Shown: positions 11,273-46,436 of the stretch, piece after piece
Layout: the number at the start of each line of letters is the position of its first letter
How positions within the stretch are numbered: position 1 is the first letter of the stretch
NCBI GenBank assembly: GCA_947504725.1
Contig: CANNHN010000003.1
Coordinates: forward strand, 88,945 to 152,944
From: Bacteroidota bacterium
GTDB taxonomy: Bacteria > Bacteroidota > Bacteroidia > 2-12-FULL-35-15
Direction of reading: 5' to 3'
DNA: 64,000 bases
Made by a program: the position numbers and the translations under genes
Notes under the pieces: generated by a model
The model's database searches: none
Told to the model about the DNA's origin: nothing
The model's input: the letters and a program-made list of their open reading frames with translations, nothing else

Positions 11273-12298
11273 ATGACAATTAAAAACGATTTAATACTAC
11301 GAGCTGCAAGAGGTGAAAAAGTGGAAAGAACACCCGTTTGGTTAATGCGTCAAGCGGGAAGAATATTGCCCGAATATCGAGAAGTAAGAGCAAAAATGGG
11401 AGGATTTAAAGAGTTGGTAGAAACTCCCGAATTTGCATGTGAAGTGACCATTCAGCCTGTAGATATTTTAGGAGTTGACGCTGCCATTATCTTTTCTGAT
11501 ATTCTCGTTATACCAGAAGCGATGGGGCTTCCCTACCAAATGATTGAAGCAAAAGGACCTTGGTTTGAGAAAACAATACAAACTGCTGCTGACGTTGCGC
11601 AGATTAGAGTAGCACAAGGAGGCGATTTAAATTACGTGTTGGATGCAATCAAGCTAACTAAAAAGGAGTTGAATGGAAGAGTTCCATTGATTGGATTTGC
11701 TGGAGCTCCTTGGACAATCTTTGCTTACATGATTGAAGGAAGCGGTAGTAAAACATTTTCTAAAGCAAAGAAATTCTTATATACTCAACCAGAAACAGCT
11801 CATGTTTTGTTGCAAAAGATAACAGACAGCACGATCAATTATTTAAAAGCACAAATTGTTGCAGGTGCAGATATGTTGCAATTGTTTGATAGTTGGGCAG
11901 GTGTATTGTCTCCAGAACAATACAACGAGTTTGCATTAAAATACATTTCTCAAATATGTGATGCTATTAAAGATGTTCCATTTACGGTTTTTGCAAAAGA
12001 TGCTCATTTTGCCCGTAAACAGATGGGCCAATTGAGTTGTGATACTATTGGTTTGGATTGGACAATGGATATTGCAGAATCCCGTTTATTAATAGGTGAA
12101 AACAAAACGCTCCAAGGTAATATGGATCCTTGTATGCTTTATGCAGATTATGCAACAATAAAATTGGAAGCACAAAAAATGTTAAAAGCATTTGGCCCGC
12201 ACCGTCACATTGCAAACTTGGGTCATGGTTTGTATCCAGACCTAGATAAAGATAAAGTAAAGTGTTTTGTTGATACCATCAAAGAATATCGATTTTAA
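11273..12298 (+). CDS. hemE: uroporphyrinogen decarboxylase
   Basis: It has the canonical HemE N-terminus: [34 protein letters not shown]. It is full-length at 341 aa. Confidence 0.9.
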
Positions 12299-12303
12299 TT
12301 TGA

Positions 12304-13401
12304 ATGTATAAAAAAACAAAAAATACTACTTCAGTTTTTCTAAAAGCAATTTTGTTTTTAGTGATGTTTTTATTTTCTGTTTCCTCTTTTTCCCAAGCCC
12401 CAAAAGGGAAAAATGTTATCCCCAATCCTAGTTTCGAAGAACGTAAAAGTAAAGGAAGCGATATTAAAGCTGCTCTTCCCTGGAAAGGTGTTGGTACAGT
12501 TGACTATTATATGAAGCCTGATAAAAGAGACATTTCTAAGTACAAAGGTGCTCGAACGGGAACCAGTTATGCTGGATTACGTTTTCAAGCAGACTATAAA
12601 GAATACATGCATGTGAAATTGTTGGAAACTCTAGAAAAGGGTGAAGTGTATGAATTTAAAATGTATATCAGAATACTGGAAGCTGAAAATGTTACTGTCA
12701 CCGTGAAACAGTTGGGAGCCTTTTTTTCACCAGAAGAATTTAGAATCGGAATGGAATTTAATGAGGAAGGATTGGTAGATACAACCTATAGCAAAGGAAT
12801 TTCAGGAACACTTAATTGGATTTTAATTCAAGGGGATTATACAGCTAATGGAACTGAAAAATATATGATCATCGGAAATTTCAGAACAAAAATGAAAGAT
12901 GACTTTGTTAAAAAGAACAAATGGAGTCTGTTCGCTTTTCAAGAAGCTTATTATTACATTGATGATCTTTCATTATCTAAAAAAAAGGTTGAGGATGATT
13001 CGCCTAAATATGATAAGGAAGGCGGAGTTGTAAATTGGTTGCCGAATGCTTTTCATGCTGGGAAAACATTCGAGATTAAGAATTTGTTTTTTGAAAAAGG
13101 AACTTCAAAATTAATGAGCACTTCTAATAAATCATTGGACGAATTGGTTAAAATGTTAGTGAAAAATCCTTCAACTAGTATCCAATTGAACGGACATATG
13201 GATAAGTTTGGAAACGAAGAAGAAGAAAAGAGAATTTCCAAAGAACGCGCTAAAGCAGTATATGACTATTTGAAATTAAAAGGAGTAACTAACCAAATCA
13301 TTTTTAAAGGCTTGGGTTCTACTCAGCCAGTTGCTCCTAATGATTCGGAAGATTACAAAGCAAAGAATAGAAGAGTGGAAGTTTCCATTCTGAAAGAATA
13401 A
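12304..13401 (+). CDS. OmpA-family protein (signal peptide, N-terminal beta-rich domain, C-terminal OmpA peptidoglycan-binding domain)
   Basis: The C-terminal block NGHMDKFGNEEEEKRISKERAKAVYDYLKLKGV...NRRVEVSIL carries the OmpA_C motifs. Confidence 0.7.
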   Translation: MYKKTKNTTSVFLKAILFLVMFLFSVSSFSQAPKGKNVIPNPSFEERKSKGSDIKAALPWKGVGTVDYYMKPDKRDISKYKGARTGTSYAGLRFQADYKEYMHVKLLETLEKGEVYEFKMYIRILEAENVTVTVKQLGAFFSPEEFRIGMEFNEEGLVDTTYSKGISGTLNWILIQGDYTANGTEKYMIIGNFRTKMKDDFVKKNKWSLFAFQEAYYYIDDLSLSKKKVEDDSPKYDKEGGVVNWLPNAFHAGKTFEIKNLFFEKGTSKLMSTSNKSLDELVKMLVKNPSTSIQLNGHMDKFGNEEEEKRISKERAKAVYDYLKLKGVTNQIIFKGLGSTQPVAPNDSEDYKAKNRRVEVSILKE

Positions 13402-13426
13402 TTTTATAACATTAAAAATTAGCTCT

Positions 13427-14719
13427 ATGAATACATTTCAAAAAGGAGATAAAAAATTAATAAACGCATGGACGTTTTATGATTGGGCAAATTCTTCTTA
13501 TCCGTTAGTCATCTCCACGGCTATTTTCCCTATTTTTTATGAAAAGGTTACCAGTACAATAGTCGATGGGAAAGTAATAAGTGATAAAGTTAGTTTGTTT
13601 GGTGTTGAATTTATAAATTCAGAAATCTATTCGTATGTAGTAGCACTCTCATTTATCATTGTATCTATATTTTCTCCGATACTTTCGGGAATAGCTGATT
13701 TTAGTGGAAGTAAAAAACGCTTCATGCAATTCTTTTGTTATTTAGGTTCTATTTCATGTGCATCCTTGTATTTTTTCAATAAAGATTATTTAGGATTAAG
13801 TATGTTATCCATTTTGTTTGCAAGTATCGGTTTTTGGGGGAGCCTCGTTTTTTATAATGCATATTTACCTGAAATTGCAGAACCGGCTGATCATGATAAA
13901 GTGAGTGCAAAAGGTTTTGGAATGGGTTATTTCGGAGGTGCAATTTTATTGATAATAAATTTAATTCTTATTAAGGGATTTGGAATGAATGCTCGGTTTT
14001 CATTTATTTCTGTAGCTCTTTGGTGGATAGGTTTTGCGCAAATTACATTTGCTAGATTACCAAATGGAACAAAATCAAATGTTCTTTCCCAAGGAAATGT
14101 TATTTTTAAAGGCTTCAAGGAATTGTGGAAAGTTTGGAATGAATTAAAACATATCAAACAATTAAAAAGATACTTAATTGCATTTTTTATTTATAGCATG
14201 GGTGTGCAAACCGTTATGTTAATGGCTGTTTTATTTGCTAAAAAAGAAATTGCAGGATTAGAGGATGCTAATTTAATAACCAGTGTTTTGTTAATTCAAT
14301 TTGTTGGAATTCTAGGTTCGTTTTTGTTTTCGAGAATTTCTAATAAAATTGGAAATATTAAAACGCTAGGGCTTACTCTATTTATTTGGATTGCAATCTG
14401 TATAGGAACATATGCTTTTGTGTTCACCCCGAATGCATTTTATGTAATTGCCTGCTCCGTTGGTTTGGTTATGGGAGGAATTCAATCTTTGTCACGTTCA
14501 ACCTATTCAAAACTTCTTCCTGAAACAACTGATAATGCCTCGTTTTTTAGTTTTTATGATGTATGCGAAAAAGTAGGAATCGTTATCGGAATGCTTTCTT
14601 TTGGTTTTATTGAAGGTGTCACTGGGAGCATGAGGAATTCAATATTAGCGTTAATTATATTTTTTATTCTAGGATTTGTTGTTTTGTTGACAATACCGAA
14701 ATCAAAAAATGTAAGTTAA
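13427..14719 (+). CDS. MFS transporter, UMF1 (Atg22-like) family
   Basis: WTFYDWANSSY opens TM1, which is characteristic of UMF1. There are about 12 TM helices. Confidence 0.6.
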   Translation: MNTFQKGDKKLINAWTFYDWANSSYPLVISTAIFPIFYEKVTSTIVDGKVISDKVSLFGVEFINSEIYSYVVALSFIIVSIFSPILSGIADFSGSKKRFMQFFCYLGSISCASLYFFNKDYLGLSMLSILFASIGFWGSLVFYNAYLPEIAEPADHDKVSAKGFGMGYFGGAILLIINLILIKGFGMNARFSFISVALWWIGFAQITFARLPNGTKSNVLSQGNVIFKGFKELWKVWNELKHIKQLKRYLIAFFIYSMGVQTVMLMAVLFAKKEIAGLEDANLITSVLLIQFVGILGSFLFSRISNKIGNIKTLGLTLFIWIAICIGTYAFVFTPNAFYVIACSVGLVMGGIQSLSRSTYSKLLPETTDNASFFSFYDVCEKVGIVIGMLSFGFIEGVTGSMRNSILALIIFFILGFVVLLTIPKSKNVS

Positions 14720-14784
14720 GTGAATAAGATGTTAGCTCAATAAATACAAATTAGCAATAAGTAAATTCGATTAGTAATTCCTTT

Positions 14785-15507
14785 ATGATTGTAGATATTT
14801 TTATTCCTTGTTTTATTGACCAAATTTATCCTGAAACAGGATTGAATATGGTGAAGATTTTAGAAAAAGTCGGTTGTGGTGTAAATTACAACCCTGAACA
14901 AACGTGTTGTGGTCAACCAGCTTTTAATGCAGGTTATTGGGACGATTGTAAAGAAGTAGGAGAGAAATTTATTCAGGAATTCCAAAACGACAGATACATT
15001 GTTTGTCCTTCAGCATCTTGTGTAGGAATGATTAAAAATTATTATCCTGAAATGTTTCACAATTCCGTTTTGCATAACGAATACAAGCAAATTCAAAAAA
15101 ATATTTTTGAGTTTTCCGACTTCATGGTAAATGTTTTGAAGATAACGGATCTTGGAGCTACATTGAACGGTGTAGCTACTTACCATGATTCATGCTCTGC
15201 ATTACGTGAATATGGAATTAAACGTGAGCCAAGGGTGCTTCTTGAAAAGGTTCGAGGATTGGAATTGAGAGAAATGAAAGATTCTGAAACATGTTGCGGG
15301 TTTGGAGGAAGTTTCTCGGTGAAGTTTGAGCCTATTGCAGTAGGAATGGGAGAACAAAAATTAGAGAATGCTTTACAAACGGGTGCAGAATATATGATAT
15401 CTACGGATGTTTCTTGTTTGATGCATGTTGATGGATATGCAAAAAAAGCAGGAAAAAAAATGAAGATGATGCATTTGTGTGATGTGCTTGCTTCGGGTTG
15501 GGATTAA
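14785..15507 (+). CDS. (Fe-S)-binding protein with two cysteine-rich CCG domains (LutA/GlcF-like)
   Basis: Two CCG motifs are present: CCGQPAFNAGY and CCGFGGSF. Confidence 0.6.
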   Translation: MIVDIFIPCFIDQIYPETGLNMVKILEKVGCGVNYNPEQTCCGQPAFNAGYWDDCKEVGEKFIQEFQNDRYIVCPSASCVGMIKNYYPEMFHNSVLHNEYKQIQKNIFEFSDFMVNVLKITDLGATLNGVATYHDSCSALREYGIKREPRVLLEKVRGLELREMKDSETCCGFGGSFSVKFEPIAVGMGEQKLENALQTGAEYMISTDVSCLMHVDGYAKKAGKKMKMMHLCDVLASGWD

Positions 15508-15525
15508 TTAATATGATTTTTAAAA

Positions 15526-16674
15526 ATGATTAAACTATTAACAATAATTGGTGCTCGTCCGCAAATCATTAAATCTGCAGCATTAAGTAGAGCCATAAAA
15601 AACAAATTTTCTGATACAGTCAGAGAAATAATTGTACACACCGGTCAGCATTATGATGATAATATGTCACAAGTGTTTTTTGATGAATTAGATATTCCTC
15701 ATCCAAATTATAATTTGAATGTTGGTTCTGGATCACATGGTAAACAAACGGCATTAATGATTGAGGGTATTGAGGAAATTCTTTTAAAAGAAAAGCCTAA
15801 TTGCATTGTTTTATATGGTGATACCAATTCAACACTTGCGGGTGCAGTAGCAGCTTCTAAAATTCAAGTTCCAATCGTTCATGTTGAAGCTGGTTTACGC
15901 TCTTTTAATAAAGCGATGCCCGAAGAAGTTAATAGAATTATGTGTGATTCTGTTTCTACACTTTTGTTTTCACCTACAAAAGCTGGGTTCGATAATTTGG
16001 TAAAGGAAGGTTTTAAAAAGAAAAATTCACCACCTTATTCATTTGATAATCCTAAAATATATCATTGCGGAGATGTAATGTTTGATAATAGTCTGCATTT
16101 TTCTACTGTTGCTAAAAAGAAGAGTGCTATTTTAAGTGATAATGGATTAGAAGATGGAAGTTTTTTACTTGCCACGATTCATAGGAATAATAATACAGAT
16201 GAACCAGAACGTTTAAATGCGTTGTTCCGTGCTATTAATAAAATTTCTATTGAAAATGATATTAAGATTGTTTTGCCATTGCATCCTCGTACAGCAAAAT
16301 TGCTTTCACAAAATCTTACTCCTGAATTATACAGTACTGTTAAAACAAATGAACTTATCAAGATTATTCCTCCTGTTTCATTTTTAGAAATGATTGCACT
16401 TGAAAAAAATGCATTTTTAGTAATGACAGATTCGGGGGGTGTTCAAAAAGAAGCATTCTTTTTTAAGAAGCCATGTATCATTTTGCGTTCGGAGACTGAG
16501 TGGGTGGAGCTTGTAAGCTCTGGTTCTGCTATTGTTGCTGATGCTAATGAAGTTGAGATTATAAAAGCATTTGAGAAATTCAAAAAAATGAAAAGATTAA
16601 AATTTCCAGATTTGTTTGGAGATGGAAATGCTGCAGAATTTATTTGTCAAGAAATTTTAAAGAATATTCGTTAG
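15526..16674 (+). CDS. wecB: UDP-N-acetylglucosamine 2-epimerase (WecB/NeuC family)
   Basis: The N-terminus is LLTIIGARPQIIKSAAL, followed by HTGQHYD and the NVGSGSHGKQTA block. It has the GT-B-like epimerase_2 architecture. Confidence 0.8.
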   Translation: MIKLLTIIGARPQIIKSAALSRAIKNKFSDTVREIIVHTGQHYDDNMSQVFFDELDIPHPNYNLNVGSGSHGKQTALMIEGIEEILLKEKPNCIVLYGDTNSTLAGAVAASKIQVPIVHVEAGLRSFNKAMPEEVNRIMCDSVSTLLFSPTKAGFDNLVKEGFKKKNSPPYSFDNPKIYHCGDVMFDNSLHFSTVAKKKSAILSDNGLEDGSFLLATIHRNNNTDEPERLNALFRAINKISIENDIKIVLPLHPRTAKLLSQNLTPELYSTVKTNELIKIIPPVSFLEMIALEKNAFLVMTDSGGVQKEAFFFKKPCIILRSETEWVELVSSGSAIVADANEVEIIKAFEKFKKMKRLKFPDLFGDGNAAEFICQEILKNIR

Positions 16675-16677
16675 AAG

Positions 16678-17985
16678 ATGCTTCTGATTTATACACATAA
16701 AATTACTCACCGTAACAAGTATATCTTTAATCTAATTTTCAAAGATACGCTGGGCATTGATTTTAAGTTAGTGCAAGAGTTGGAAGAATTTAAAACTCAC
16801 GAAGGAGCTAAGTTTAGTTACACAAACAACCCTGTTGCTGACGAAGTTTTTTTTATTTCCCGTAATCTACTTTTCGAAACGGGAATAACCGAACAAAATA
16901 TTTCAGTGTTTGATTACAACGAATGCAAAGTGTTTTTTGCAACAGGAAAAGCATCTGCACTGCCATTTGATGTGTTTGCCGCGAGTTTTTATTTGGTTAG
17001 TAGGTACGAAGAATATTTGCCTCATATCCGCGATGAGCACGATCGGTTTGATGCAAAAGATAGTTTGGCATTTACGAATGGATTTTTGCATAAACCTTTA
17101 GTCAATATTTGGGCAATTTGGATAAAGGAATTACTCTTACAAAAATATCCTCAACTGATTTTTCCTGAAAAAAAGTATCAGTTTACCTCTACAATAGATA
17201 TTGACAATGCATACGCGTATCGTGAAAAAGGATTTACCAGAAGTGTGGGTGGATACCTGAAGTCATTGTCTAAACTTGATTTTAAAGAAGTTTCAGAACG
17301 TACTCGTGTTTTACTTGGTTTCGATGGTGATCCTTATGATACATATGAATTTCAGTTGGAGATGATTAAAAAGTACAACCTAAAAGCAATTTACTTTTTT
17401 TTGCTTGGTGATTATGGTGTAAATGATAAAAACTTACCAATTGAAAGTAAAAAATTTCAGTCTCTGATTAAAATGTTGGGTGATTATGCACAAATAGGTA
17501 TTCATCCTTCTTATGGATCTAATAAAAGCAAAACACAATTAAAAAAGGAAGTAGATCGTTTATCTAAGGTGTTGCACAGAGATATCACTCAAAGTCGACA
17601 ACATTTTTTGAAATTGACATTGCCAGAAACATATCGTAACCTGATAGATTTAGATATTACGGATGATTACACCATGGGATTTGCATCGCAAGTTGGTTTT
17701 AGAGCTAGTATTTGCACAGCTTTTAATTTTTATGATTTGGATATGGAGTTGGAAACAAAATTGAAAATTCATCCTTTTGCAATGATGGAAGGAACATTAA
17801 AATACAATATGAAAGTTAGTCCGGAGGATGCAATGAATAAAATTAAACCTTTGATTGATGAAGTGAAAAAAGTAAATGGTGATTTTATGAGCTTATGGCA
17901 CAATGATACTTTGAATGATAGAAAAATATGGACTGGCTGGAAAGAGGTTTATGAAAAAATGGTGCAACACGCTGCTGCAAAATAA
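16678..17985 (+). CDS. hypothetical protein, possibly NodB-fold / polysaccharide-deacetylase-like (C-terminal half)
   Basis: TSTIDIDNAYAY and IGIHPSYGS resemble the metal-binding Asp and His motifs of NodB-fold enzymes. The N-terminal half has no recognisable motif. Its stop overlaps the next start by 1 nt. Confidence 0.3.
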   Translation: MLLIYTHKITHRNKYIFNLIFKDTLGIDFKLVQELEEFKTHEGAKFSYTNNPVADEVFFISRNLLFETGITEQNISVFDYNECKVFFATGKASALPFDVFAASFYLVSRYEEYLPHIRDEHDRFDAKDSLAFTNGFLHKPLVNIWAIWIKELLLQKYPQLIFPEKKYQFTSTIDIDNAYAYREKGFTRSVGGYLKSLSKLDFKEVSERTRVLLGFDGDPYDTYEFQLEMIKKYNLKAIYFFLLGDYGVNDKNLPIESKKFQSLIKMLGDYAQIGIHPSYGSNKSKTQLKKEVDRLSKVLHRDITQSRQHFLKLTLPETYRNLIDLDITDDYTMGFASQVGFRASICTAFNFYDLDMELETKLKIHPFAMMEGTLKYNMKVSPEDAMNKIKPLIDEVKKVNGDFMSLWHNDTLNDRKIWTGWKEVYEKMVQHAAAK

Positions 17986-18878
17986 TGCTTAAAAAACTAG
18001 CCCTAAAATATGCTCCCGAATTTGTTCTTGAATGGGCAAAACAACTGAAAAAAAATCAGCGTAGAAAAGAATTGGAGCAACAGAAACAAAATGGAAAGGT
18101 TATTTCAAAAGAAATTTTGATTCAAGATTTGAAAAAAATTGGATTAAAGAAAAATGATTCTGTTCTTGTGCATAGTAGTTTAAGTAAAATTGGTTTTGTT
18201 GAAGGTGGGCCAAAAGCCATTGTGGATGCTCTTTGGGAAGTACTTGGTCCTGAAGGCACATTATTGTTTCCGACATTCCCCGCAGCTGGGAGAAATAAAA
18301 CACATCTGGAAGACACTCCATTGTTTGATATAAGAAACACTCCTTCACAAATGGGAAGTGTCACCGAATACTTTAGAAAGATGGAAGGTTGTAAAAGAAG
18401 CTTTCATCCAACAGATACTGTTTGTGCAATTGGGCCGTTGGCAGAATTTTACACCGATTCTCATTTCGGACAACTAACTCCTTACAATGAAAATTCTCCT
18501 TTTAGAAAACTTTGTTCTAAAAATGGAAAGATATTAATGTTAGGTACTACATTAAATGGTGCCTGCACAAACCTTCATACATTGGAAGATGCAGTCGACT
18601 TTAAGTTTCCTGTTTATGATGAAAAGATATTTGATGTAAAGATGATTGATGCAGAAGGAAAAGTATCAATGATGAAAACAAAAGTTCACAATCCTGATTA
18701 TTCTGCAAAAAGAAATTGTGATGCATTAAAACCAATGTTTGAAAATGAAGGCGTTTTGATAAATGGAGTAGTAGGAGAAGCAAAAACAATGTTGATTGAT
18801 GCGAATAAAATGTTGGAAGTGATGATTAAGAATTACAAAGAAAAAGGTGTAACCATGTATACTCCGTTTGGCTCATGA
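17985..18878 (+). CDS. AAC(3)-family (Antibiotic_NAT fold) N-acetyltransferase
   Basis: VHSSLSKIGFVEGGPKAIVDALWEVLGPEGTLLFPTF matches the conserved N-terminal core of aminoglycoside 3-N-acetyltransferase family proteins. Non-resistance homologues act on amino sugars. Confidence 0.55.
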   Translation: MLKKLALKYAPEFVLEWAKQLKKNQRRKELEQQKQNGKVISKEILIQDLKKIGLKKNDSVLVHSSLSKIGFVEGGPKAIVDALWEVLGPEGTLLFPTFPAAGRNKTHLEDTPLFDIRNTPSQMGSVTEYFRKMEGCKRSFHPTDTVCAIGPLAEFYTDSHFGQLTPYNENSPFRKLCSKNGKILMLGTTLNGACTNLHTLEDAVDFKFPVYDEKIFDVKMIDAEGKVSMMKTKVHNPDYSAKRNCDALKPMFENEGVLINGVVGEAKTMLIDANKMLEVMIKNYKEKGVTMYTPFGS

Positions 18879-19873
18879 ACATCTACTTAACCCTCGACTA
18901 TGAAATTTACTTTGGTGAAAACCATGGTTCAGTTGAGAAATGCATTATTTATCCTACTTCTGAGCTTATCCGTATAGCAGAAAAACACAATGTAAGATTT
19001 AGTTTTTTTGTGGATTGTGGTTTTATTTTAAAGTTGGATGAATTAAGAAAAAAATTTCCAGTTTTGGAAATGGATTACAAAGCAATTACAGAACAAGTAA
19101 AATATTTATCCGATACCGGTCACGATATTCAACTGCATATTCATCCACACTGGGAAGATTGTATTTATGATGGCAAGCGCTGGATCATTGATGTGAAGAG
19201 ATACAAGCTTTCAGATTTTAACGATAATGATATTGCTGATATTGTTGTGAGATATAAGAAAGTGCTTACTGATATAACCAATAAACCCGTTTTTGCTTTT
19301 AGGGCTGGAGGCTGGTGTTTACAGCCATTTAGTAAGTTGAGAAAAGTATTTAAAGATAACAACATTACATTGGATAGTAGCGTTTTTAATAATGGTTATT
19401 TTAGTTCGGAACAATATTCCTACGATTTTAGAAATGCTCCGGAGAAAGATATTTACAAATTTGAAGATGATGTAATTGTTGAAAACGAAAAGGGTTTTTT
19501 TACCGAACTTCCAATTAGTCCGATTAAAAATTCACCATTGTTTTTTTGGATATTGTTTATGCTTGGAAGAAAGAATCCGCATCTGCATAAGCCATTGGGA
19601 GATGGTAGGGCAATGGCTGCTCCAGGATATAGAAAAAAACTGTTGACAAAGTTTACAAACAATCCTGTTTCTGTAGATGGCTACAATTCGCATCTATTAC
19701 AAACAGCTTTAGGGATTTTACAAAAAAAGAAAAGAGAACACATGGTTATAATTGGTCATCCTAAAGCATTGTCTCGTTATTCGATTCTAAAGATTGAAGA
19801 GTTTGTAGAAAAAAACAAAGCGAAAAATAATTTCACCACATTTTCAAAGATGTTTGCTCCTAAGCATGATTAA
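18875..19873 (+). CDS. polysaccharide deacetylase (NodB-fold) family protein
   Basis: YLTLDYEIYFG is the Asp-Asp motif-1 region and HIHPHW is the His-His region. It overlaps the upstream gene by 4 nt (ATGA). Confidence 0.45.
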   Translation: MNIYLTLDYEIYFGENHGSVEKCIIYPTSELIRIAEKHNVRFSFFVDCGFILKLDELRKKFPVLEMDYKAITEQVKYLSDTGHDIQLHIHPHWEDCIYDGKRWIIDVKRYKLSDFNDNDIADIVVRYKKVLTDITNKPVFAFRAGGWCLQPFSKLRKVFKDNNITLDSSVFNNGYFSSEQYSYDFRNAPEKDIYKFEDDVIVENEKGFFTELPISPIKNSPLFFWILFMLGRKNPHLHKPLGDGRAMAAPGYRKKLLTKFTNNPVSVDGYNSHLLQTALGILQKKKREHMVIIGHPKALSRYSILKIEEFVEKNKAKNNFTTFSKMFAPKHD

Positions 19874-20786
19874 GTTTGTAGAATATAAAAATATCAATAA
19901 GAAGAAATGGGATGATTGCATTAGCAATAGCTCCAATCCTTCGATTTTTGTTTATTCCTGGTATTTGGATGTGGTTTGTAAAGATTGGTCTGCTTTAATT
20001 TTAGACGATTACGAAGCTGTTTTTCCTCTAGCTTCTAAATCTAAATATAAAATCAATTATTTAGTTCAACCTTTTTTTACTCGCTATTTCGGACTTTATT
20101 CTAAATCGAAAACCTCTGCAAAAATACTTGCTGAATTTTTTGATGCTATCCCTTCTAAATTTAAATTCTCTGAATTTTGTTTACATGAAAAGAGTGATGT
20201 TAAATTAAAACAAGGAGAGTTCTCGGATAAGAAATTTCAGGTATTGGATTTAAGTTCAAAATATGAAAGCATTCAAAAAGATTTTTCTGACAACACAAAA
20301 CGAAACGTAAAAAAAGCAATTAAAGCAGGATTGAAAATTCGGCCAGATATTTCTCCTGATAAAATAGTTCATTTGTTTAGAACGACTAAAGGAAAAGATT
20401 TGGAAGTTTTTAGCTCCGAAGATTATAAAACACTTATTAAATTGATGGATACTTGTAATGACTTAAAGAAGGGTCAATCAATTGCAATTTATGATGGAGA
20501 TAAGTTGTGTGCAGCAGCATTTTTTATGTTTTCAAATAATCGATTTACATTTTTAAAGAGTGGTGTAACCGATGATGGTAAAGCAAAAGGAGCAATGCAT
20601 TTGCTTTTCGACTACTTTATTAAGGAAAATTCAGGAAAAAGGTACCAGCTTGATTTTGGTGGATCTTCCGTGGAGAATGTGGCTCGTTTTTACAAGAATT
20701 TCGGTGCAAAAGATTGCGTATATTTGCAAGTGAAACAAAACAATTTGCCCAACTTGGTAAAGTGGGTGAAATCATTAAAAAAGTAA
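19866..20786 (+). CDS. GNAT-fold acyltransferase of the FemAB / BioF2-like (Acetyltransf_6) type
   Basis: A roughly 305-aa protein with a duplicated GNAT-like organisation. The N-terminus is IKFVEYKNINKKKWDDCISNS...FVYSWYLD. The start overlaps the upstream stop (ATGATTAA). Confidence 0.4.
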   Translation: MIKFVEYKNINKKKWDDCISNSSNPSIFVYSWYLDVVCKDWSALILDDYEAVFPLASKSKYKINYLVQPFFTRYFGLYSKSKTSAKILAEFFDAIPSKFKFSEFCLHEKSDVKLKQGEFSDKKFQVLDLSSKYESIQKDFSDNTKRNVKKAIKAGLKIRPDISPDKIVHLFRTTKGKDLEVFSSEDYKTLIKLMDTCNDLKKGQSIAIYDGDKLCAAAFFMFSNNRFTFLKSGVTDDGKAKGAMHLLFDYFIKENSGKRYQLDFGGSSVENVARFYKNFGAKDCVYLQVKQNNLPNLVKWVKSLKK

Positions 20787-20790
20787 TCTT

Positions 20791-21438
20791 ATGGTACATG
20801 TTTTAGGAGCAAATAATTCAATTTTTAATCAATATATTTCTGAAATACGTGATGTAAATGTTCAAAAAGATAGTATGCGTTTTCGCAGAAACTTAGAACG
20901 TATGGGAGAGATTATGGCTTATGAAATAAGCAAAACATTGGTGTATAAACTAGAAGATGTAACTACACCTTTAGGTATTGCAAATGTTTCTGTGCCATCT
21001 GAACAACCGGTTGTTGCAACTATTTTGCGTGCAGGTTTGCCTTTGCATCATGGGATATTAAATTATTTTGATAAAGGCCAAAATGCTTTTATTTCTGCTT
21101 ATCGCAAACATCATAAAGATGGTAGTTTTGATATTCATGTAGAATATATGGCTTCTCCTGATTTAACGGATAAAGTATTGATTCTTACTGATCCAATGTT
21201 AGCTTCTGGCGCGTCAATGGTGCTAGCTTATCAAGCGTTAATGAAAAGAGGGATTCCGGCTCATACGCATATTGTTGCTATTATTGCAAGTACAGAAGGT
21301 GTTGAATATGTTAAAAAAAATTTACCATTAAATGTCACTTTATGGGTTGGTGCTTTGGATGAAGAATTGACTGCTCAGTCATATATAGTTCCTGGATTAG
21401 GTGATGCTGGGGACTTAGCTTATGGTGAAAAAATCTAA
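20791..21438 (+). CDS. upp: uracil phosphoribosyltransferase
   Basis: The PRPP-binding loop is VLILTDPMLASGASM, and the C-terminal uracil-binding motif YIVPGLGDAGD is present. Confidence 0.85.
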   Translation: MVHVLGANNSIFNQYISEIRDVNVQKDSMRFRRNLERMGEIMAYEISKTLVYKLEDVTTPLGIANVSVPSEQPVVATILRAGLPLHHGILNYFDKGQNAFISAYRKHHKDGSFDIHVEYMASPDLTDKVLILTDPMLASGASMVLAYQALMKRGIPAHTHIVAIIASTEGVEYVKKNLPLNVTLWVGALDEELTAQSYIVPGLGDAGDLAYGEKI

Positions 21439-21450
21439 TTTATAGTTGAC

Positions 21451-21930
21451 ATGGACGAGTGGTGGGAAATTCTTTCCGTTTTTTTATTTAGTACAATTAA
21501 ATTCTTTTTCGGTGGAGTTCCATTGGCTTTAGGATATAATTTTTCACATTTGGAAAGTATTTTTGTTACTTCTGCCGGTGGATGCACAGGTGTTGCTTTT
21601 TTTGTTTCTGCAAGTGATAGACTAATTGCATATTTCAAAAAAAGTGCTGCTCAAAAACGTTTAAATAATCCCAATTTACCTCCAAAGAAAAAATTCACAC
21701 GCACCAATAGAGTTATTATTGGCGTGAAAAGACGATTTGGATTATGGGGTTTTTCTATGATTGTACCTTTTTTAATTCCTATTCCGTTGGGTTGCTTTTT
21801 AGCAGTGCGCTATTTTGATCATAAAATTAAAATTATGTCTGCTTTATTTGTCTCAGTTGTATTCTGGGCTGTAGTTGGAGCATTTTTGTATAAACCTCTT
21901 TTTGATGCCATACGAAACTTTATTCCTTGA
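21451..21930 (+). CDS. hypothetical small membrane protein
   Basis: A 159-aa protein with 3-4 predicted TM helices and no motif. Its 3' end overlaps the likely start of the next gene. Confidence 0.35.
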   Translation: MDEWWEILSVFLFSTIKFFFGGVPLALGYNFSHLESIFVTSAGGCTGVAFFVSASDRLIAYFKKSAAQKRLNNPNLPPKKKFTRTNRVIIGVKRRFGLWGFSMIVPFLIPIPLGCFLAVRYFDHKIKIMSALFVSVVFWAVVGAFLYKPLFDAIRNFIP

Positions 21931-22597
21931 TTTAGATCATACGCTTTGGGATTTTGAAACAAATTCCAAAGAAGCGCTCTCTGAAATTGCAGATAATCAT
22001 CAACTATTAAATAAAGGAATTCCTTCTTTGGAAGCTTTTCTGAAAGAGTATTTTATTATCAATGAACTCCTATGGGAGGATTATAGAAAAAATATTATTT
22101 CAAAAGAGACATTGCGTTACAACCGTTTTCATAAAGCATTAAAAAAATTTGATATTGACGACTTTGATTTAGCCACAGCTATTGGTAACGATTATGTAAA
22201 CAGCGCTCCGTATAAAACTAACCTTTTTCCTCATGCTATAGAAGTGCTCGAATATCTGAAAGGAAAATACGACTTGCATATTATCACAAACGGATTCGAA
22301 GAAGTACAACATCTCAAATTAAAGAATTCAAAAATTGACCACTACTTCGATCATATTATTACTTCCGAGCGTTCAGGATTCAAGAAACCAGACGAGAGAA
22401 TGTTTCACTTTTCATTGGAACTTGCAAATGCAAATCCCGAAACCAGCATTATGATTGGTGATAGTTTGGAAGCAGATGTGTTAGGAGCAAAAAGTGTAGG
22501 AATGCATCAGGTGTATTTTAATCCAGATGAGAAAAAACACGGTGAAGAGCTTACACACGAAATAAAGAGCTTGAATGAATTGCTCCACATCCTCTAA
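21905..22597 (+). CDS. HAD-superfamily hydrolase, YjjG-like (pyrimidine 5'-nucleotidase subfamily IA)
   Basis: Motif I is FLDLDHTLWDF (DxD nucleophile) and motif IV is the GD at MIGDSLEADV. The ATG at 21905 (MPYETLFLDLDHT) is the plausible start. Confidence 0.65.
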   Translation: MPYETLFLDLDHTLWDFETNSKEALSEIADNHQLLNKGIPSLEAFLKEYFIINELLWEDYRKNIISKETLRYNRFHKALKKFDIDDFDLATAIGNDYVNSAPYKTNLFPHAIEVLEYLKGKYDLHIITNGFEEVQHLKLKNSKIDHYFDHIITSERSGFKKPDERMFHFSLELANANPETSIMIGDSLEADVLGAKSVGMHQVYFNPDEKKHGEELTHEIKSLNELLHIL

Positions 22598-22600
22598 ACA

Positions 22601-22641
22601 AAAAAAATCCCCTCCGAAATAATCGAAGGGGATTTTTTTAT
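22601..22641. terminator. bidirectional rho-independent terminator
   Basis: The sequence is aaaaaaaatcccctccgaaataatcgaaggggattttttt: an ~11-bp GC-containing stem with an A-tract upstream and a T-tract downstream. It lies between the convergent genes 21905-22597 (+) and 22655-22951 (-). Confidence 0.6.
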
Positions 22642-22654
22642 GATTTAACAAAAA

Positions 22655-22951
22655 CTATTTTTCAGTTTTTGTTTCAGTAGCTGTAGCAGTTGCAGTTCCT
22701 TTTGATTTGCAACAAGATTTACCTTCTGCTTTTTCGCCAGAACATGCTTTTGCTTCTGTTTTTTCTCCAGAACAAGCTTTAGCACTTCCTTCTTTTTTGC
22801 AACATTCTTTTTTGTCTTTTTTCTTTTTGTCATCGCCTTTTTTGTCGTCACCTTTAACAGTTTCAACAGTTGCTTTAGTAGAAACTAAAGTTGTAGCAGA
22901 TGCAGCACCAACAATTCCTGTGAATGCTAATAATAAAAATAATTTTTTCAT
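22655..22951 (-). CDS. small secreted Cys/Lys-rich protein with an internal tandem duplication
   Basis: The signal peptide is MKKLFLLLAFTGIVGAASA. The mature region is KK/CC-rich and contains AKACSGEKTEAK / AKACSGEKAEGK repeats. The matching ~40-nt direct repeat is visible in the DNA. The ATG at 22951 is preferred over the upstream start in the ORF track. Confidence 0.5.
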   Translation of the reverse strand: MKKLFLLLAFTGIVGAASATTLVSTKATVETVKGDDKKGDDKKKKDKKECCKKEGSAKACSGEKTEAKACSGEKAEGKSCCKSKGTATATATETKTEK

Positions 22952-23085
22952 GTGGTTTATGGTTTTAAATGGTTGTTTCAATTATTATATAACCTAAAAT
23001 TAATTAAAATATTTGATTTGTTTCCAATTTTAACATTTATAATTGTTAAATGGTGTTAAATGGCAATCGATAGTTTGAAGTCAGC

Positions 23086-28672: not shown

Positions 28673-31354
28673 TTGCAACGAATGCTATTAATGGATAATC
28701 AAAATCAATTTAATATTCCTGAACAAACTCCAAATTTATTTTTGAGGTTTCTGCATTTTCTTAGACGTTTGGTTCTTGTTGTTAGTATTCTGCTGTTGCT
28801 ACTCAGTGGAACAGGATTCCTTGTTGCCTATTTTTATCAAGATGAGGTGAAAGAATATGTAATAGGTGAACTCAATAAACAACTGAACACAGAAATAATT
28901 GTAGATGGTAAAGATATCGACTTTACTGTTGTTGAAAATTTTCCGTATGCTTCTGTTGATTTCAAAAATGTAAAAGCGTTGGAGGTAATTGATAGAGAAA
29001 ATCAATCTCCTCGAAAAAAAGACACATTGTTTTCTGCTGGAACAATCTCTTTTCAATTTAATATAATGGACGTTTTTAAGCAAAATTATCGCATCAAAAA
29101 AGTCGAGATAGAAGATGTTGATTTAAAAATTCGAATAGATAAGTTTGGAAACGATAATTATCATTTCTGGAAAGAGTCGACAGATTCGACAAATACTAGC
29201 TTTGCATTTTCTTTAGAAGAAATTGTTTTGAAAAAGATAAATGTTTCATTCAAAAATTATAAAGCAAAACAAAATATAGATTTCTTGCTTGAAAATAGCA
29301 GCCTGTCTGGTAATTTTTCAGATGAAAAATATGATTTACAAACCACTACTGATGCGTTTGTAAATGTGATTAAAGTCGATAGCACAAACTATATCCGAAA
29401 AAAGAATGTTCATTTGGAAATGGATTTGAGTGTTGATAATTCAGTGCCGTCATACAAAATCAAAAATGGAAAAATTCAAATTGAAGATTTGTTATTTGAG
29501 GTGGTTGGAAATGTTATCAAAAGCAACAAAGAACCTGTTGTGAATCTTGGCGTGAAAGGGAAAAATATGGATATCAAATCTGTTTTATCTCTTATCCCAA
29601 ATAAGTACAAAGGTGGAATCAACGATTATGAAAGTGATGGCGAATTTTATTTTGATGCAACAATACAAGGTGTTTATTCAAGTAAACAGGTGCCGCAAAT
29701 TACTGCTGATTTTGGAATTAAGAATGCAGATATTACTCAAGTGAAAGACAATATTAAGCTTCACAACGTAAATTTGAAAGGGCATTATTTTAATGGTAAT
29801 AAAAATTCAAATGAGCCTTCTGAACTTACACTTATTCCTTTTTCCGCAACCATCGATGAAGGAACATTGGTTGGTGAATTGACAATAAGAAATTTATCAA
29901 ATCCGTCTTTTTCTGGAAAAGTGAAAGCGAATTTAGATTTAACAAATGTTCAAAAATTCATAAAAATTGACACAATTGAATCTGTTACCGGAAAGGTTGT
30001 TGTTGATGCTGTTTTTAGTGGAGATGAAAAAAGTGTGAGTTCAGGCAACTATGAAAATATTACCACAACAGGTGATTTGAAAATCAATGATATGAATCTG
30101 AAGCTGAAGAATTACACCTTGGATTTTTCAGGAATCAATGGCGATTTTAAATTCGACAACAACGATTTAGCTGTAAATTCTTTTACTGGGAAAGTAGCAA
30201 GTAGCGATTTTAAGTTGCAAGGTTTTTTTAGAAATATTGTTGGATTTATTTTGAAAGAAAATCAAAGTATTGCAATTGAAGCGACCTTGAAGTCTGATAA
30301 CATTGATTTGAATGAATTGTTATCAAGCAAAGAGGAGGAAAGGAAATCGAGTAAATACAAATTAAAATTTTCAGAGTTTATAGATGTGAATTTAAATAGT
30401 GAAATTCAACATTTGGTTTTCAGAAAATTTGATGCAACTAATATTCGTGGAGTTATAAAAATAAAAGATAAAAAAATGGTGGTTGATCCAATTGTTTTAA
30501 ATACAATGAATGGAAGCATTACTACCAGTGGCTTGATTGATGGAACGGATAGTACAAAGTTGTTGATTACTTGTTTTTCTGATGTCAATAAAATCAACGT
30601 CACAAAAATGTTTGAGAGCTTTGAGAGTTTCGGGCAAACGGCTATAACGGATAAAAATTTGAAAGGAGTTGCAACTGCTAAAATTCAGTTTGCTTCTATG
30701 TTGAGTCCCGATTTAAAAATGGATATGGATAAATTGTATGCTGGTGTAGAAATGACAATAGAAAATGGAGAAATGAACAATGTTTCGGCTATGAAAAGTT
30801 TATCGCGTTTTATAGAGTTGAAAGATTTGGAGAATGTAAAATTTGCCACGTTGAAAAATCAAATTGAAATAAAAAATCAAGTGATTACGATTCCTAAAAT
30901 GGAAGTGAAGTCAAATACGATTAACATAACAGCATCAGGAACTCATTCGTTCAAAAATGAAATTAATTATAGTGTAAAATTGTCATTGAACGAATTGTTA
31001 TCGAAAAAAGCAAAACAAGCTAAAAAGCAAAATGATGAATTCGGAGAAGTGGCAGATGATGGTTTAGGAAGAACAAATATTTTTCTATTGATGACCGGTA
31101 CAATCGATAATCCTACCATTAAATATGATTCGAAAAGTGCTATTAAAAATGTACAACAAGATTTAAAAGTTGAAAAACAAACGCTGAAAACTATATTAAA
31201 AGAAGAATTCGGATTGTTTAAGAAAGATTCTACTTTGAATAACAAAAAACCAAAAGATGATACAAAATTCATCATAAAGTGGGAAGAAGCGGATAAGAAA
31301 GAGGATAAAAAGGTGCTCAAAACACCTAAAAAACCTGAAGAAGAGGATTTTTAA
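28673..31354 (+). CDS. AsmA-family protein (outer-membrane assembly, large periplasmic beta-rich protein)
   Basis: An 893-aa protein with an N-terminal TM anchor and a long repetitive beta-strand-rich body. The C-terminal KKxxK tail is similar to AsmA/TamB-like proteins. Confidence 0.5.
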   Translation: MQRMLLMDNQNQFNIPEQTPNLFLRFLHFLRRLVLVVSILLLLLSGTGFLVAYFYQDEVKEYVIGELNKQLNTEIIVDGKDIDFTVVENFPYASVDFKNVKALEVIDRENQSPRKKDTLFSAGTISFQFNIMDVFKQNYRIKKVEIEDVDLKIRIDKFGNDNYHFWKESTDSTNTSFAFSLEEIVLKKINVSFKNYKAKQNIDFLLENSSLSGNFSDEKYDLQTTTDAFVNVIKVDSTNYIRKKNVHLEMDLSVDNSVPSYKIKNGKIQIEDLLFEVVGNVIKSNKEPVVNLGVKGKNMDIKSVLSLIPNKYKGGINDYESDGEFYFDATIQGVYSSKQVPQITADFGIKNADITQVKDNIKLHNVNLKGHYFNGNKNSNEPSELTLIPFSATIDEGTLVGELTIRNLSNPSFSGKVKANLDLTNVQKFIKIDTIESVTGKVVVDAVFSGDEKSVSSGNYENITTTGDLKINDMNLKLKNYTLDFSGINGDFKFDNNDLAVNSFTGKVASSDFKLQGFFRNIVGFILKENQSIAIEATLKSDNIDLNELLSSKEEERKSSKYKLKFSEFIDVNLNSEIQHLVFRKFDATNIRGVIKIKDKKMVVDPIVLNTMNGSITTSGLIDGTDSTKLLITCFSDVNKINVTKMFESFESFGQTAITDKNLKGVATAKIQFASMLSPDLKMDMDKLYAGVEMTIENGEMNNVSAMKSLSRFIELKDLENVKFATLKNQIEIKNQVITIPKMEVKSNTINITASGTHSFKNEINYSVKLSLNELLSKKAKQAKKQNDEFGEVADDGLGRTNIFLLMTGTIDNPTIKYDSKSAIKNVQQDLKVEKQTLKTILKEEFGLFKKDSTLNNKKPKDDTKFIIKWEEADKKEDKKVLKTPKKPEEEDF

Positions 31355-36660: not shown

Positions 36661-39600
36661 ATGAAGAATTTGAAAAAAAATATACTCCTTTCATTCATTT
36701 TATTATTAGTTAGTTCAATCTCGGCTACCAATTTGTATTGGGTAGGTGGAACAGGTTCGTGGAACCAAGCAATTCATTGGTCTTTAACTACCGGTGGTCC
36801 TTCTGGTGCAATTGTTCCTACTGCAAATGATGATGTTTATTTCGATCAAAATTCATTTTCAGCAGATCATCAAACCGTAATGGTTACCGTTAATGCGGTT
36901 TGTAGAAATATAGATTGGACGAATATCGACTCTAAAGCTATATTTTCTTGCTCTCCATCTAAATCGCTTTCAGTTTTTGGTTCTTATAAGCTTTCACCCT
37001 TATTAATGAATGGTTTTAAAGGAAAAACCATTTTTTCGGCAACCACAGCTAATAATGATATTTATTCGGCAGGTAAACCAATTATTGGTGATTGGCTTTT
37101 TAATGGCTCAGGTTCATGGAGTCTTCAAGATGATGTGAATGCAGCCAACGGTATTACCTTTTATTTGTTGAAAGGTTCATTAAGCACAAATGACAAAAAA
37201 GTAGTTTGTGATTATTTTAATGGAAATTCTACACAAACAAGAAATTTATCTTTAGGCAATTCTGAAATCACAATTAAAAAATGTTGGGATTTTTCAAATT
37301 CAATAAATGCTACATTGGATCCTGGTGCCTCTACAATTATTTTCCACGACACCATTAATGCCACTAATTTTAGAGATGGTAATTTAAGGTATGCTAGTGT
37401 TTCAACATTAAGAGCATTGGGTCAAAATACGGTTACGTGTGTATTTCCAGGAGTATTTACAATTACCCTAACCGCTGATAGTGTTACTTGTAACGGATTA
37501 TTAGATGGTTCTGTATGTGCTGTAGTTACGGGTGGTTCAGGAACATTTCTATATGATTGGAATTTTGCGGCTGTACCTGTTGGAGATGGAACCCCTTGTA
37601 TTACCCTTCGTCCTACTAGTGTAAATACATTGCAAGTGACTGATGTCGTTTCTGGAGTCACTCGCTTTTGTTCTATTACTGTTGGAGAACCTGCACTTTT
37701 ATTTGATTATGAAGTATTAAATATTTCGCCTACTTGTTTTGGTGTCTGCGATGGGTTAGCAGAGATTGACGAAACAGGGGGGACGCCTCCTTATACTTAT
37801 TCGTGGACAGGTGGATTAGGAACTAATGACTCAGCAATAAATGTTTGCGTTGGAACATATACAGTTACAGTTACTGATTCACGAGGTTGTACTAATAATG
37901 CAGCTGTAATCAATATGGTACAACCACCATTGCTAGTCGCTCCAGGATCTGCAACAATGATTAGTTGTTTTGGATTTTGTGATGGAACAGCAAGTGTAGT
38001 TGCATCTGGTGGATCAGTTCCCTACACATACGATTGGACACCTGGTGCACCGATTGGAGATGGAACTCCTGCTGTTACTGCATTGTGCCCAGCTAGTTAT
38101 ACATGTACTGTAACAGATATAAACGGATGTATTGCCACATTTGATACAACAATTACTCAGCCTTTGGTATTAACACTTACTATGTCGCAAGTGAATGCTA
38201 CTTGCGGAGGAATGTGTGATGGAACAGCAACAGCAACAGTTTCAGGTGGTACCACTCCCTATATTTATGTTTGGTCAAATGGTTCTGTAACTTCTACAGT
38301 TTCTACAACCAACACAATTAGTGGTTTGTGCGCTGGACCATATACCGTTACTGTTACTGATGCAAATGGCTGTACTTTAAATAATAATGTCACAATAACC
38401 GAGCCTCCTGTTTTGGTTGCTACTGCATCTGGAACCAATATTACTTGTTTTGGTTTATGTAATGGAACTGCGACTGTTGTCGTTGTCGGAGGAAATGGCG
38501 GTAATACTTTTGATTGGACACCTGGAAATCCTACGGGAGATGGAACAGCAAATATTACAGGTTTGTGTGCCGGAACATATACCGTTACCGTTTTTGATAA
38601 TACAGGAATTTGTACAGACACAGGAGTAGTTGTTATTACAGAGCCGGCAATTTTAGCAGCGAACCCAACAAGCACTAATGTTCTGTGTTTTGGTGCGTGT
38701 AATGGAACTGCAACTTCTATTCCTTCTGGTGGAACGCTTCCATATTCGTTTGATTGGACACCTGGAGCGCCAACAGGAGATGGTACGGCATTCATTATAA
38801 ATTTGTGTCCTAATACATATACTGTTACAGTTACTGATGGAAATGGCTGTACAAATAGTCAAAGTGTTGTCATTACACAACCCGCTGTTTTAAGTGATGG
38901 AGCTACTTTTACTAATGTATCATGTAATGGTGCTTGTGATGGAACTGCTACAGCAAATCCTGTAGGAGGTACTCCAGGCTATACCTATCTTTGGAGTACT
39001 GGAGCTATTACTCCTGGCATTACAGGCTTGTGTCCTGGTTCATATACTGTAACCGTAACAGATGCAAATCTTTGTACAAATTCTGGAACCGTTGTCATTA
39101 CTCAACCAAATATCTTAAACGTAAGTGTGGTTGCTTCAGCATTGGCTTGTAATGGCGATTGTAATGGAACTGCAGTTGCTACGATCTCAGGTGGAACAGC
39201 TCCTTTTGCAATTGATTGGACACCAGGCTCTCCGATTGGTGATGGAACTACTACTATTAGCTCTTTGTGTTCTGGAACATATACTATAAATGTTGTAGAT
39301 GCGAATGGTTGTCCTGGAACGGCTTCTGGGGCAGTGTTTGAGCCAACAGTTTTGGTATTGACTACATCAGTAACGGATGTTACCTGCTTTGCTGCTTGTG
39401 ACGGAACGGCCTCAGCTTTAGCTGGAGGTGGAACTCCTGGATATTCTTATTCTTGGTTGCCAGGCGCACTTTCAACTTCATCAATTTCTGGATTATGTCC
39501 AGGGAGTTATACTGTTACTGTTACCGATTTAAATGGTTGTACTATTTCAGATACAGTTACGATAATTGAACCAACCCAAGTGTTTGCAAATCCAGCAGTA

Positions 39601-46284: not shown

Positions 46285-46393
46285 GCGTCATTGCGAGTCC
46301 CGTCCCGATAATTCGGGACGGGACTCGCAATCTCATCCATAAAGGGTTGACTATGCTGGTGTGGGATTGCTTCGTGCCTCGCAATGACGTTCT
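46285..46393. repeat. Family-B MITE-like element (~105 bp, 12-bp terminal inverted repeats CGTCATTGCGAG...CTCGCAATGACG) with an internal perfect 18-bp-stem hairpin
   Basis: The left end is gcgtcattgcgag. The internal palindrome is ttgcgagtcccgtcccga-taat-tcgggacgggactcgcaa. The right end is ggattgcttcgtgcctcgcaatgacgttc. Copies are at 47385-47487 and 59874-59980, with partial copies at 52421-52465 and 63338-63358. Confidence 0.7.
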
Positions 46394-46436
46394 TATTTAT
46401 GCTTTGATTTATTTAAAGAAAGTTTATATTTGTTAC

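Follow-up and report, generated by a model that had tools for sequence, protein, structure and literature searches.

What could be made by five tightly packed genes that together suggest amino-sugar chemistry and that sit among genes for housekeeping functions? This question is raised by a window of 64,000 nucleotides (64 kb; the whole stretch of DNA that was analysed) from the genome of an uncultured Bacteroidota bacterium (assembly GCA_947504725.1, contig CANNHN010000003.1), in which five co-directional open reading frames (ORFs), designated g1 to g5, occupy the + strand. We propose, with a probability of roughly 0.55, that this cassette carries out the cytoplasmic tailoring of a nucleotide-linked amino sugar by the logic of the Wbp/Vim pathway, using a separate gene family native to the Bacteroidota. 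A first-pass annotation, made from the sequence alone, had described five genes here; all were found as ORFs on the + strand at the coordinates it gave, and the enzyme classes and superfamilies it had assigned were borne out by Pfam and NCBIfam matches and by structural models of g4 and g5. The features are listed below by their positions in the window.

g1, 15526..16674, + strand, 382 amino acids (aa): predicted non-hydrolysing UDP-sugar 2-epimerase, WbpI-like
g2, 16678..17985, + strand, 435 aa: predicted DUF7033 plus CE4-like amidohydrolase of an apparent sister family of VimE; core gene
g3, 17985..18878, + strand, 297 aa: predicted AAC(3)-fold N-acyltransferase; accessory, always paired with g4
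g4, 18875..19873, + strand, 332 aa: predicted divergent CE4/NodB-fold amidohydrolase; accessory, always paired with g3
g5, 19866..20786, + strand, 306 aa: predicted Fem-type tandem-GNAT transferase, VimA-like in class; core gene

Predicted chemistry of the cassette

The chemistry that we propose draws on three independent lines of evidence, namely that g1 is WbpI-like, that g2 is a full-length homologue of VimE, and that g5 is of the Fem class and has enzymes that use aminoacyl-tRNA as its nearest structural neighbors. We infer the following order of steps. First, g1 would epimerize a UDP-linked 2-acetamido sugar at position 2 into the manno form, the likeliest substrate being UDP-2,3-diacetamido-2,3-dideoxy-glucuronic acid (UDP-GlcNAc3NAcA) made elsewhere in the genome. 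Next, g2 would remove one N-acetyl group to leave a free amine, and g5, as a member of the FemX/VimA class, would attach an amino acid to this amine, most probably from an aminoacyl-tRNA, to yield an N-aminoacyl amino sugar. The g3 and g4 proteins may perform a second deacylation and re-acylation that exchanges the other N-acetyl group; alternatively, the alpha-amine on the newly attached aminoacyl group might be acetylated and de-acetylated by them. A glycosyltransferase encoded elsewhere would finally use the product, which would enter a conserved cell-surface glycan; the one that carries attached type IX secretion cargo is a candidate. Signal peptides are absent from all five proteins. The cycle of epimerization, de-N-acetylation and re-acylation suggested in the first-pass annotation is plausible as general chemistry, with its likely substrate revised from a simple hexosamine to a 2,3-diacetamido uronic acid.

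The epimerase g1 resembles WbpI-type enzymes

The g1 protein had been called WecB. It matches Pfam Epimerase_2 at 332 bits and scores 306 bits against the NCBIfam wecB model, TIGR00236, well above the cutoff of 210. Because TIGR00236 does not separate WecB from WbpI, this match is compatible with the substrate of either. Solved structures were more discriminating. The best relative was the UDP-2,3-diacetamido-2,3-dideoxy-glucuronic acid 2-epimerase of T. thermophilus (PDB 8sxv), with 365 bits and approximately 50% identity, followed by proteins from M. jannaschii (301 bits), S. aureus (CapG, 183 bits), B. anthracis (WecB, 133 bits) and E. coli (WecB, 120 bits). The bit score to the Thermus enzyme is therefore about three times that to either WecB, and a WbpI-type UDP-GlcNAc3NAcA 2-epimerase is a better reading of g1 than a classical WecB. 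Since g1 is nearest to the Thermus enzyme, its substrate is likely to be a 2,3-diacetamido uronic acid rather than plain UDP-N-acetylglucosamine (UDP-GlcNAc).

The activity of the Thermus enzyme on UDP-GlcNAc3NAcA has been shown both biochemically and structurally, and this enzyme is 55% identical to WbpI of P. aeruginosa (PMC10622841). The similarity of g1 to it extends over the full length of the protein, and the region of the catalytic and allosteric sites is well conserved in the alignment. In contrast to g1, the epimerase genes of Pseudomonas and Thermus adjoin wbpA, wbpB, wbpE and wbpD, none of which is present in the window.

The core deacetylase g2 has the architecture of VimE

In g2, DUF7033 is the sole Pfam domain above threshold (125 bits), and PF01522 was detected below threshold over residues 207-300 (13.5 bits). 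The protein also aligns with positions 86-427 of 431 in the NCBIfam model for the VimE deacetylase, NF053580, with a score of 165 bits, and it shares the architecture of VimE, a DUF7033 and a CE4-like domain in a protein of approximately 430 aa. The substrate named in this model is UDP-2,3-diacetamido-2,3-dideoxy-glucuronate. Within the g2 alignment, D218 and R307 are invariant, and D221, H276, H309 and H408 are kept in 30-31 of 34 sequences. The family is large, with 7570 representative clusters at 50% identity (E<=1e-3); the top 120 matches, which represent the clade of the window, are 78-100% identical to g2. Searches of the PDB with profiles of g2 and g5 returned no sequence-level relatives of either. 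For the two genes that the first-pass annotation allowed might fall in unrelated families, 16678-17985 and 19866-20786, profile searches led to DUF7033/VimE-like proteins and to Acetyltransf_6 with a sub-threshold FemAB match, respectively, and the assignment stands. For comparison across genomes, a genome collection was scanned with the g2 alignment, which gave more than 600 matches in total and a set of 80 species-level loci.

The g5 protein is predicted to be a Fem-type aminoacyl transferase

The g5 protein reaches the cutoff of Pfam Acetyltransf_6 narrowly (22.2 bits; cutoff 22) and falls below that of FemAB (PF02388; 16.5-16.7 bits; cutoff 24). Its correct start is the ATG at 19866, because the resulting 306-aa product fits the near-constant length of the family and its conserved N-terminus; the TTG upstream, at 19854, is unneeded. 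An AlphaFold model of g5 with a predicted local distance difference test (pLDDT) value of 91 has the tandem-GNAT Fem fold, and its top structural matches include FemX, FemA and the lipid II:glycine glycyltransferase, in agreement with the Foldseek ranking. Because Fem enzymes that depend on aminoacyl-tRNA rank above tandem GNATs that use acyl-CoA, the donor used by g5 is most probably an aminoacyl-tRNA. Transfer of this kind to an amino sugar has a counterpart in Sba18, Sbb17 and Orf11, which use Gly-tRNA to aminoacylate the amino sugar of streptothrisamine. These enzymes differ from g5 in sharing only 11-14% sequence identity, in belonging to Streptomyces secondary metabolism and in not being paired with a deacetylase.

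The prominence of FemX, FemA and the glycyltransferase among these matches raises the question of whether g5 might instead act on peptidoglycan precursors. It would then add a bridge amino acid to UDP-N-acetylmuramic acid (UDP-MurNAc)-peptide or lipid II in the manner of FemX, and g2 and g4 would de-N-acetylate wall sugars. The CE4 class does include peptidoglycan deacetylases, some of which are among the fold matches of g4, and g2 is strongly conserved in a housekeeping context. Known peptidoglycan deacetylases, however, work outside the cytoplasm, and g2 and g4 lack signal peptides. Furthermore, peptidoglycan synthesis does not call for a WbpI-type epimerase, mur or fts genes are linked to g2 in none of the 80 loci, and many genomes that keep g2 have no g5. 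We consider a role in peptidoglycan synthesis to be highly improbable and retain the tailoring of a nucleotide-linked sugar as the better account of g5.

The accessory pair g3 and g4

The g3 protein matches Pfam Antibiotic_NAT at 181 bits. Its relatives in the PDB are AAC(3) enzymes, FrbF and YokD (63-83 bits), with which it shares the fold and an H-x-x-E motif (NLHTLE) that aligns with its AAC(3) counterpart. It differs from them in its location in a sugar-tailoring operon, in a basic N-terminal extension and in its score against the NCBIfam resistance model AAC_3, 127 bits versus a cutoff of 270, so that it is not a resistance-gene equivalog. The extension, a Lys/Arg-rich segment of approximately 40 aa (residues 1-40, encoded at 17985-18100), is lacking in solved AAC(3) enzymes and could form a helix that binds the membrane or a partner.

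For g4, no Pfam match exceeded its cutoff, PF01522 being the nearest (14.3 bits, E = 0.04; cutoff 23.1), and TIGR03006 was matched at 18 bits. Its AlphaFold model (pLDDT 83) was compared with the PDB by Foldseek, which returned the CE4 enzyme of M. smegmatis (3rxz), ArnD (8t0j), HP0310 and PuuE, with E values down to 4e-8 and TM scores of approximately 0.5. Each of the 45 sequences compared keeps seven residues, D8, E10, H88, H90, H92, R143 and H295, and the H-x-x-x-H spacing is included among them. The model thus predicts a CE4/NodB fold with the Asp, His-x-x-x-His, Arg and His motifs. That g4 is a duplicate of the catalytic domain of g2 was ruled out by profile comparison (hhalign probability 7%).

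The cassette consists of a core pair with optional and accessory genes

The cassette occurs in identical form on metagenome scaffolds matching the window, and the same five-gene order recurs in relatives at protein identities of only 57-83%, an arrangement that is far beyond chance. The 80 loci span the Flavobacteriales (Polaribacter, Tenacibaculum, Lutibacter, Lutimonas and Vicingaceae), the Bacteroidales, the Chitinophagales and Lentimicrobium. Counts for g5 refer to the 73 loci with room for it, and those for g1 to 74 loci. In 49 of the 73 loci, across the Flavobacteriales, Bacteroidales and Chitinophagales, g2 is succeeded by a g5 gene on its own strand; where g3 and g4 are missing, the median gap between g2 and g5 is -1 nucleotide (nt), and the two genes overlap or lie within 10 nt of each other in 32 loci. 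The epimerase gene lies directly upstream of g2 less often (17 of 74 loci, the gap ranging from -4 to +12 nt). Only 8 of the 80 loci contain g3 and g4, which are present or absent together and are always situated between g2 and g5, and in a tree of g2 these 8 loci fall into three sub-clades. These counts therefore define a core pair, g2 and g5, with an optional epimerase, g1, and an accessory, lineage-restricted insert, g3 and g4. The view of a single five-gene unit, taken in the first-pass annotation, does not hold: the five-gene order is found in relatives, but only the core pair is distributed throughout the phylum, the insert is confined to certain lineages and g1 is dispensable to the arrangement.

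The neighbors of g2 are also conserved. RadC lies upstream in 39 of the 80 loci, and downstream are found upp (46/80), a membrane ORF of approximately 150 aa (30/80) and a HAD gene (32/80); no glycosyltransferase is among the recurrent neighbors of the 80 loci. Despite its conserved linkage to g5, upp was set aside as a member of the pathway, as was the YjjG-type nucleotidase. Because neither has a chemical rationale and RadC belongs to the same block, we regard these genes as conserved housekeeping synteny.

Such synteny invites the view that the five genes share no pathway at all and that g3 acts by itself in the acetylation of aminoglycosides or xenobiotics. Unrelated housekeeping genes make up a tight array throughout the region, the linkage of upp to g5 (36 loci) is approximately as tight as that of g2 to g5, and g3 does belong to the AAC(3) family. 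On the other hand, g3 scores less than half of the AAC(3) cutoff, g3 and g4 have been gained or lost jointly and only between g2 and g5, and g2 and g5 stay adjacent in different orders, the stop codon of one overlapping the start codon of the other. In addition, the four enzyme classes are chemically coherent and match a published pathway. Synteny without a shared pathway is thus very unlikely.

Two further observations were made in this set of loci. Within the second of the clades with g3 and g4, a gene for a FabG-like short-chain dehydrogenase/reductase of 245 aa lies between g5 and upp (locus L014, 14162-14899; also L018 and L027) and may encode an extra accessory tailoring enzyme. Two typical Bacteroidota g2 loci (L021 and L039) are on contigs deposited as metagenome-assembled genomes of a 'Clostridia bacterium' and of 'Candidatus Saccharibacteria', records that are probably mis-binned or mislabelled.

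Relation to the Wbp/Vim pathway

The first-pass annotation had recognized no described pathway of this kind. However, the Wbp/Vim pathway has the same logic, especially in the Tannerella genes BFO_2565 to BFO_2568 (PMC7468200). In this pathway, UDP-GlcNAc3NAcA is made by WbpA, WbpB, WbpE and WbpD, the CE4-type enzyme VimE is the proposed remover of the 2-N-acetyl group, and VimA, which matches TIGR03019, sets whether Ser or Gly is added; the product is the sugar that ties type IX secretion system (T9SS) cargo to lipopolysaccharide (LPS) (PMC7468200). In Tannerella forsythia, vimF (BFO_2565), a predicted epimerase (BFO_2566) and vimA (BFO_2568) fall in one run of locus tags (PMC7468200), and the linking sugar is the manno epimer, 2-N-glycyl-3-N-acetylmannuronic acid (Veith 2020, PMC7468200). 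The preference for a diffusible small molecule over a polysaccharide in the earlier annotation is unsupported; the specialized sugar of the closest analogue enters an LPS-linked glycan.

The cassette shares with the Tannerella locus, at the level of enzyme class, an epimerase, a DUF7033/CE4-type deacetylase (in Tannerella putatively BFO_2567) and a Fem-like transferase. Both sets of enzymes are cytoplasmic, both loci lie outside a classical O-antigen cluster, and both hosts have a T9SS. They differ in that g2 is a sister of VimE, in that no VimF-like glycosyltransferase gene lies beside the cassette, and in that the cassette has two extra genes, for the AAC(3)-like and second CE4-like proteins. 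In P. gingivalis, VimA (PGN_1056), VimE (PGN_1055) and VimF (PGN_1054) lead to 2-N-seryl-3-N-acetylglucuronamide, the linking sugar of T9SS cargo. There too, a deacetylase and a Fem-like transferase are encoded side by side, with proposed removal of the 2-N-acetyl group followed by addition of an amino acid. Unlike in the cassette, vimA precedes vimE, a glycosyltransferase gene is present and the epimerase gene is missing, and the cassette proteins are not Vim equivalogs. The P. gingivalis genes wbpA, wbpB, wbpE and wbpD are scattered in the genome (PMC13086638).

A third pairing of this type is that of the XrtA/PEP-CTERM deacetylase (TIGR03006) and FemAB protein (TIGR03019). These models are the sole NCBIfam matches of g4 and g5, which shows that the combination of CE4 and Fem enzymes is a recurrent module. 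Both scores fall far short of their cutoffs (18 versus 276 for g4; 26 versus 260 for g5), the XrtA/PEP-CTERM pair belongs to another phylum, and there is no exosortase or exopolysaccharide locus here.

Several findings weigh against our proposal. First, the VimE score of g2 is below the NF053580 cutoff of 440, so that g2 is not a VimE equivalog, and its orthologues from four orders (including members from the Bacteroidales, Flavobacteriaceae and Chitinophagales) score 158-192 bits against the same model. Members from the Bacteroidales are no nearer to VimE than those from the Flavobacteriales, and because the scores are uniform across orders, they indicate that g2 represents a sister family of VimE rather than a fast-evolving orthologue. 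A search of the literature on DUF7033 found no paper that mentions this family. Second, the matches of g5 to the Fem and TIGR03019 models are weak at the sequence level, and its likeness to VimA is one of class (Fem/TIGR03019). Third, the 64-kb window contains no wbpA, wbpB, wbpE or wbpD and no glycosyltransferase, VimF-type included. Fourth, g2 often lacks an adjacent g5, as in the order RadC-g2-HAD of Flagellimonas; another variant locus reads g1-g2-upp. In one group of Bacteroidales from gut and rumen, a clade comprising L054, L063, L073, L077 and L078, an NAD-dependent sugar epimerase/dehydratase takes the place of g5 after g2, which suggests that g2 is able to feed other downstream chemistry. 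Fifth, the conserved block in which the genes lie consists of unrelated housekeeping genes (RadC, upp and the pyrimidine nucleotidase) and gives no hint of where the product goes. Finally, the M. jannaschii relative of g1 was deposited as a UDP-GlcNAc 2-epimerase, which keeps UDP-GlcNAc a candidate substrate of g1.

The last of these points favors a simpler scheme, in which UDP-GlcNAc is epimerized to UDP-N-acetylmannosamine (UDP-ManNAc) and a soluble small molecule then arises by deacetylation and re-acylation. Its logic would be like that of mycothiol, with an amino acid added after deacetylation and then itself N-acetylated. This scheme agrees with the wecB score of g1 above the NCBIfam cutoff, and with the absence of glycosyltransferase, flippase and Wbp genes nearby; the first-pass annotation had correctly reported that the cassette itself holds no glycosyltransferase or flippase. 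Moreover, a deacetylase, an aminoacyl transfer and an acetyltransferase in succession would parallel MshB, MshC and MshD. Nevertheless, g1 is nearer to the UDP-GlcNAc3NAcA epimerase than to any UDP-GlcNAc enzyme, and the sole named relative of g2 acts on a 2,3-diacetamido uronic acid. Approximately 90% of the loci with g2 and g5 lack g3, and a three-step scheme of the mycothiol type therefore cannot be the ancestral function. There is also no source of an aglycone such as inositol or malate. We regard the hexosamine scheme as unlikely. As family assignments, bacillithiol, mycothiol and aminoglycoside resistance were likewise kept only as rivals of low probability. Thus, the cassette is best read, on the present comparisons, not as the Vim pathway itself but as a sister system with Vim-like logic drawn from the large DUF7033-containing family.

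A possible link to type IX secretion

The organism of the window possesses a T9SS. An ORF of 2865 aa at 36661-45258 has 23 SprB repeats and a CHU_C type-B signal, and a PorP/SprF gene begins 2 nt past it (45260-46186); together they are a classic pair of adhesin and PorP-like anchor of a gliding, T9SS-positive bacterium. In addition, a 219-aa protein encoded at 51078-51737 carries a Por_Secre_tail signal (type-A C-terminal domain) and could be joined to a linking sugar by a sortase-type reaction.

To our knowledge, the biosynthesis of an amino-acid-substituted anchor sugar for T9SS cargo is known only for Porphyromonas and Tannerella. The g2 family, which is very large, well conserved and unstudied, has the same enzyme logic as Vim and is a candidate for the missing route in other members of the phylum. 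We tentatively raise the possibility that g2 and g5, with g1 where it is present, constitute a native Bacteroidota route to the linking sugar of PorU-attached T9SS cargo. In that event, the Vim genes of Porphyromonas and Tannerella could, just as speculatively, have diverged from this route or been acquired separately. Neither VimA nor VimE is present in Prevotella intermedia, which has an N-alanyl sugar as its linker, and the authors of that study concluded that several different linking-sugar pathways must exist in the phylum (PMC11969387). A search of the literature that combined FemAB and polysaccharide deacetylase with Flavobacterium and T9SS returned nothing relevant.

If such a link exists, the missing anchor-sugar pathway of the Flavobacteriia, the Chitinophagia and many environmental Bacteroidia would be identified, and the g3-g4 insert would give a linker of distinct chemistry, bearing two different N-acyl groups. 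Even apart from T9SS, the proposed chemistry would provide a second natural case in primary metabolism of a nucleotide sugar that is aminoacylated from tRNA, and a function for DUF7033, and the AAC(3)-like and CE4-like insert illustrates the elaboration of a pathway by a two-gene module. This chemistry is not categorically new; its weight lies in the breadth of the family and its possible bearing on the anchoring of T9SS cargo. Cultured Polaribacter and Tenacibaculum, which carry g2 and g5, make the g2 family accessible to experiments.

Sequence context of the cassette

The first-pass annotation had read overlaps of 1 to 8 nt throughout the cassette. The sequence has such overlaps at three junctions, g2-g3 (1 nt, TAATG), g3-g4 (4 nt, ATGA) and g4-g5 (8 nt), but g1 and g2 are separated by a 3-nt gap (TAG at 16672-16674, ATG at 16678). 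The tight packing, which had been taken as a signature of translational coupling, is real but extends beyond the cassette: upp starts 4 nt past g5, and a co-directional run leads from hemE at 11273 to 22597, where a hairpin at 22608-22639 closes it. Housekeeping genes flank the cassette as described earlier, among them those for HemE, an OmpA-family protein, an MFS transporter, a CCG-domain protein, Upp and a nucleotidase. Origin of the cassette as a horizontally acquired island was ruled out, its G+C content and skew being those of the flanks.

A terminator scan found no + strand terminator within the cassette. Promoter scanning gave fewer sigma-70-like sites than in shuffled sequence, with a model that does not cover Bacteroidota promoters, and Rfam and tRNA scans of the 64-kb window found no RNA element or tRNA. 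Pfam gave no match at E<=1e-4 for two sizeable ORFs elsewhere in the window, at 28673-31354 (893 aa) and 46347-47378 (343 aa).

The G+C-rich hairpin at 22608-22639, CCCCTCCG...CGAAGGGG, has an A-run and a T-run on its flanks and sits between the convergent HAD gene and a - strand ORF at 22655-22981. It looks like a bidirectional terminator, which the consensus terminator scan missed because of one mismatch in the stem. Between upp and the HAD gene lies a conserved ORF for a 159-aa multi-pass membrane protein (21451-21930), with a weak match to Sm_multidrug_ex that is under the cutoff (19.7 bits). This ORF overlaps the probable ATG start of the HAD gene (21905) by 26 nt, and the HAD gene itself encodes a YjjG-type pyrimidine nucleotidase.

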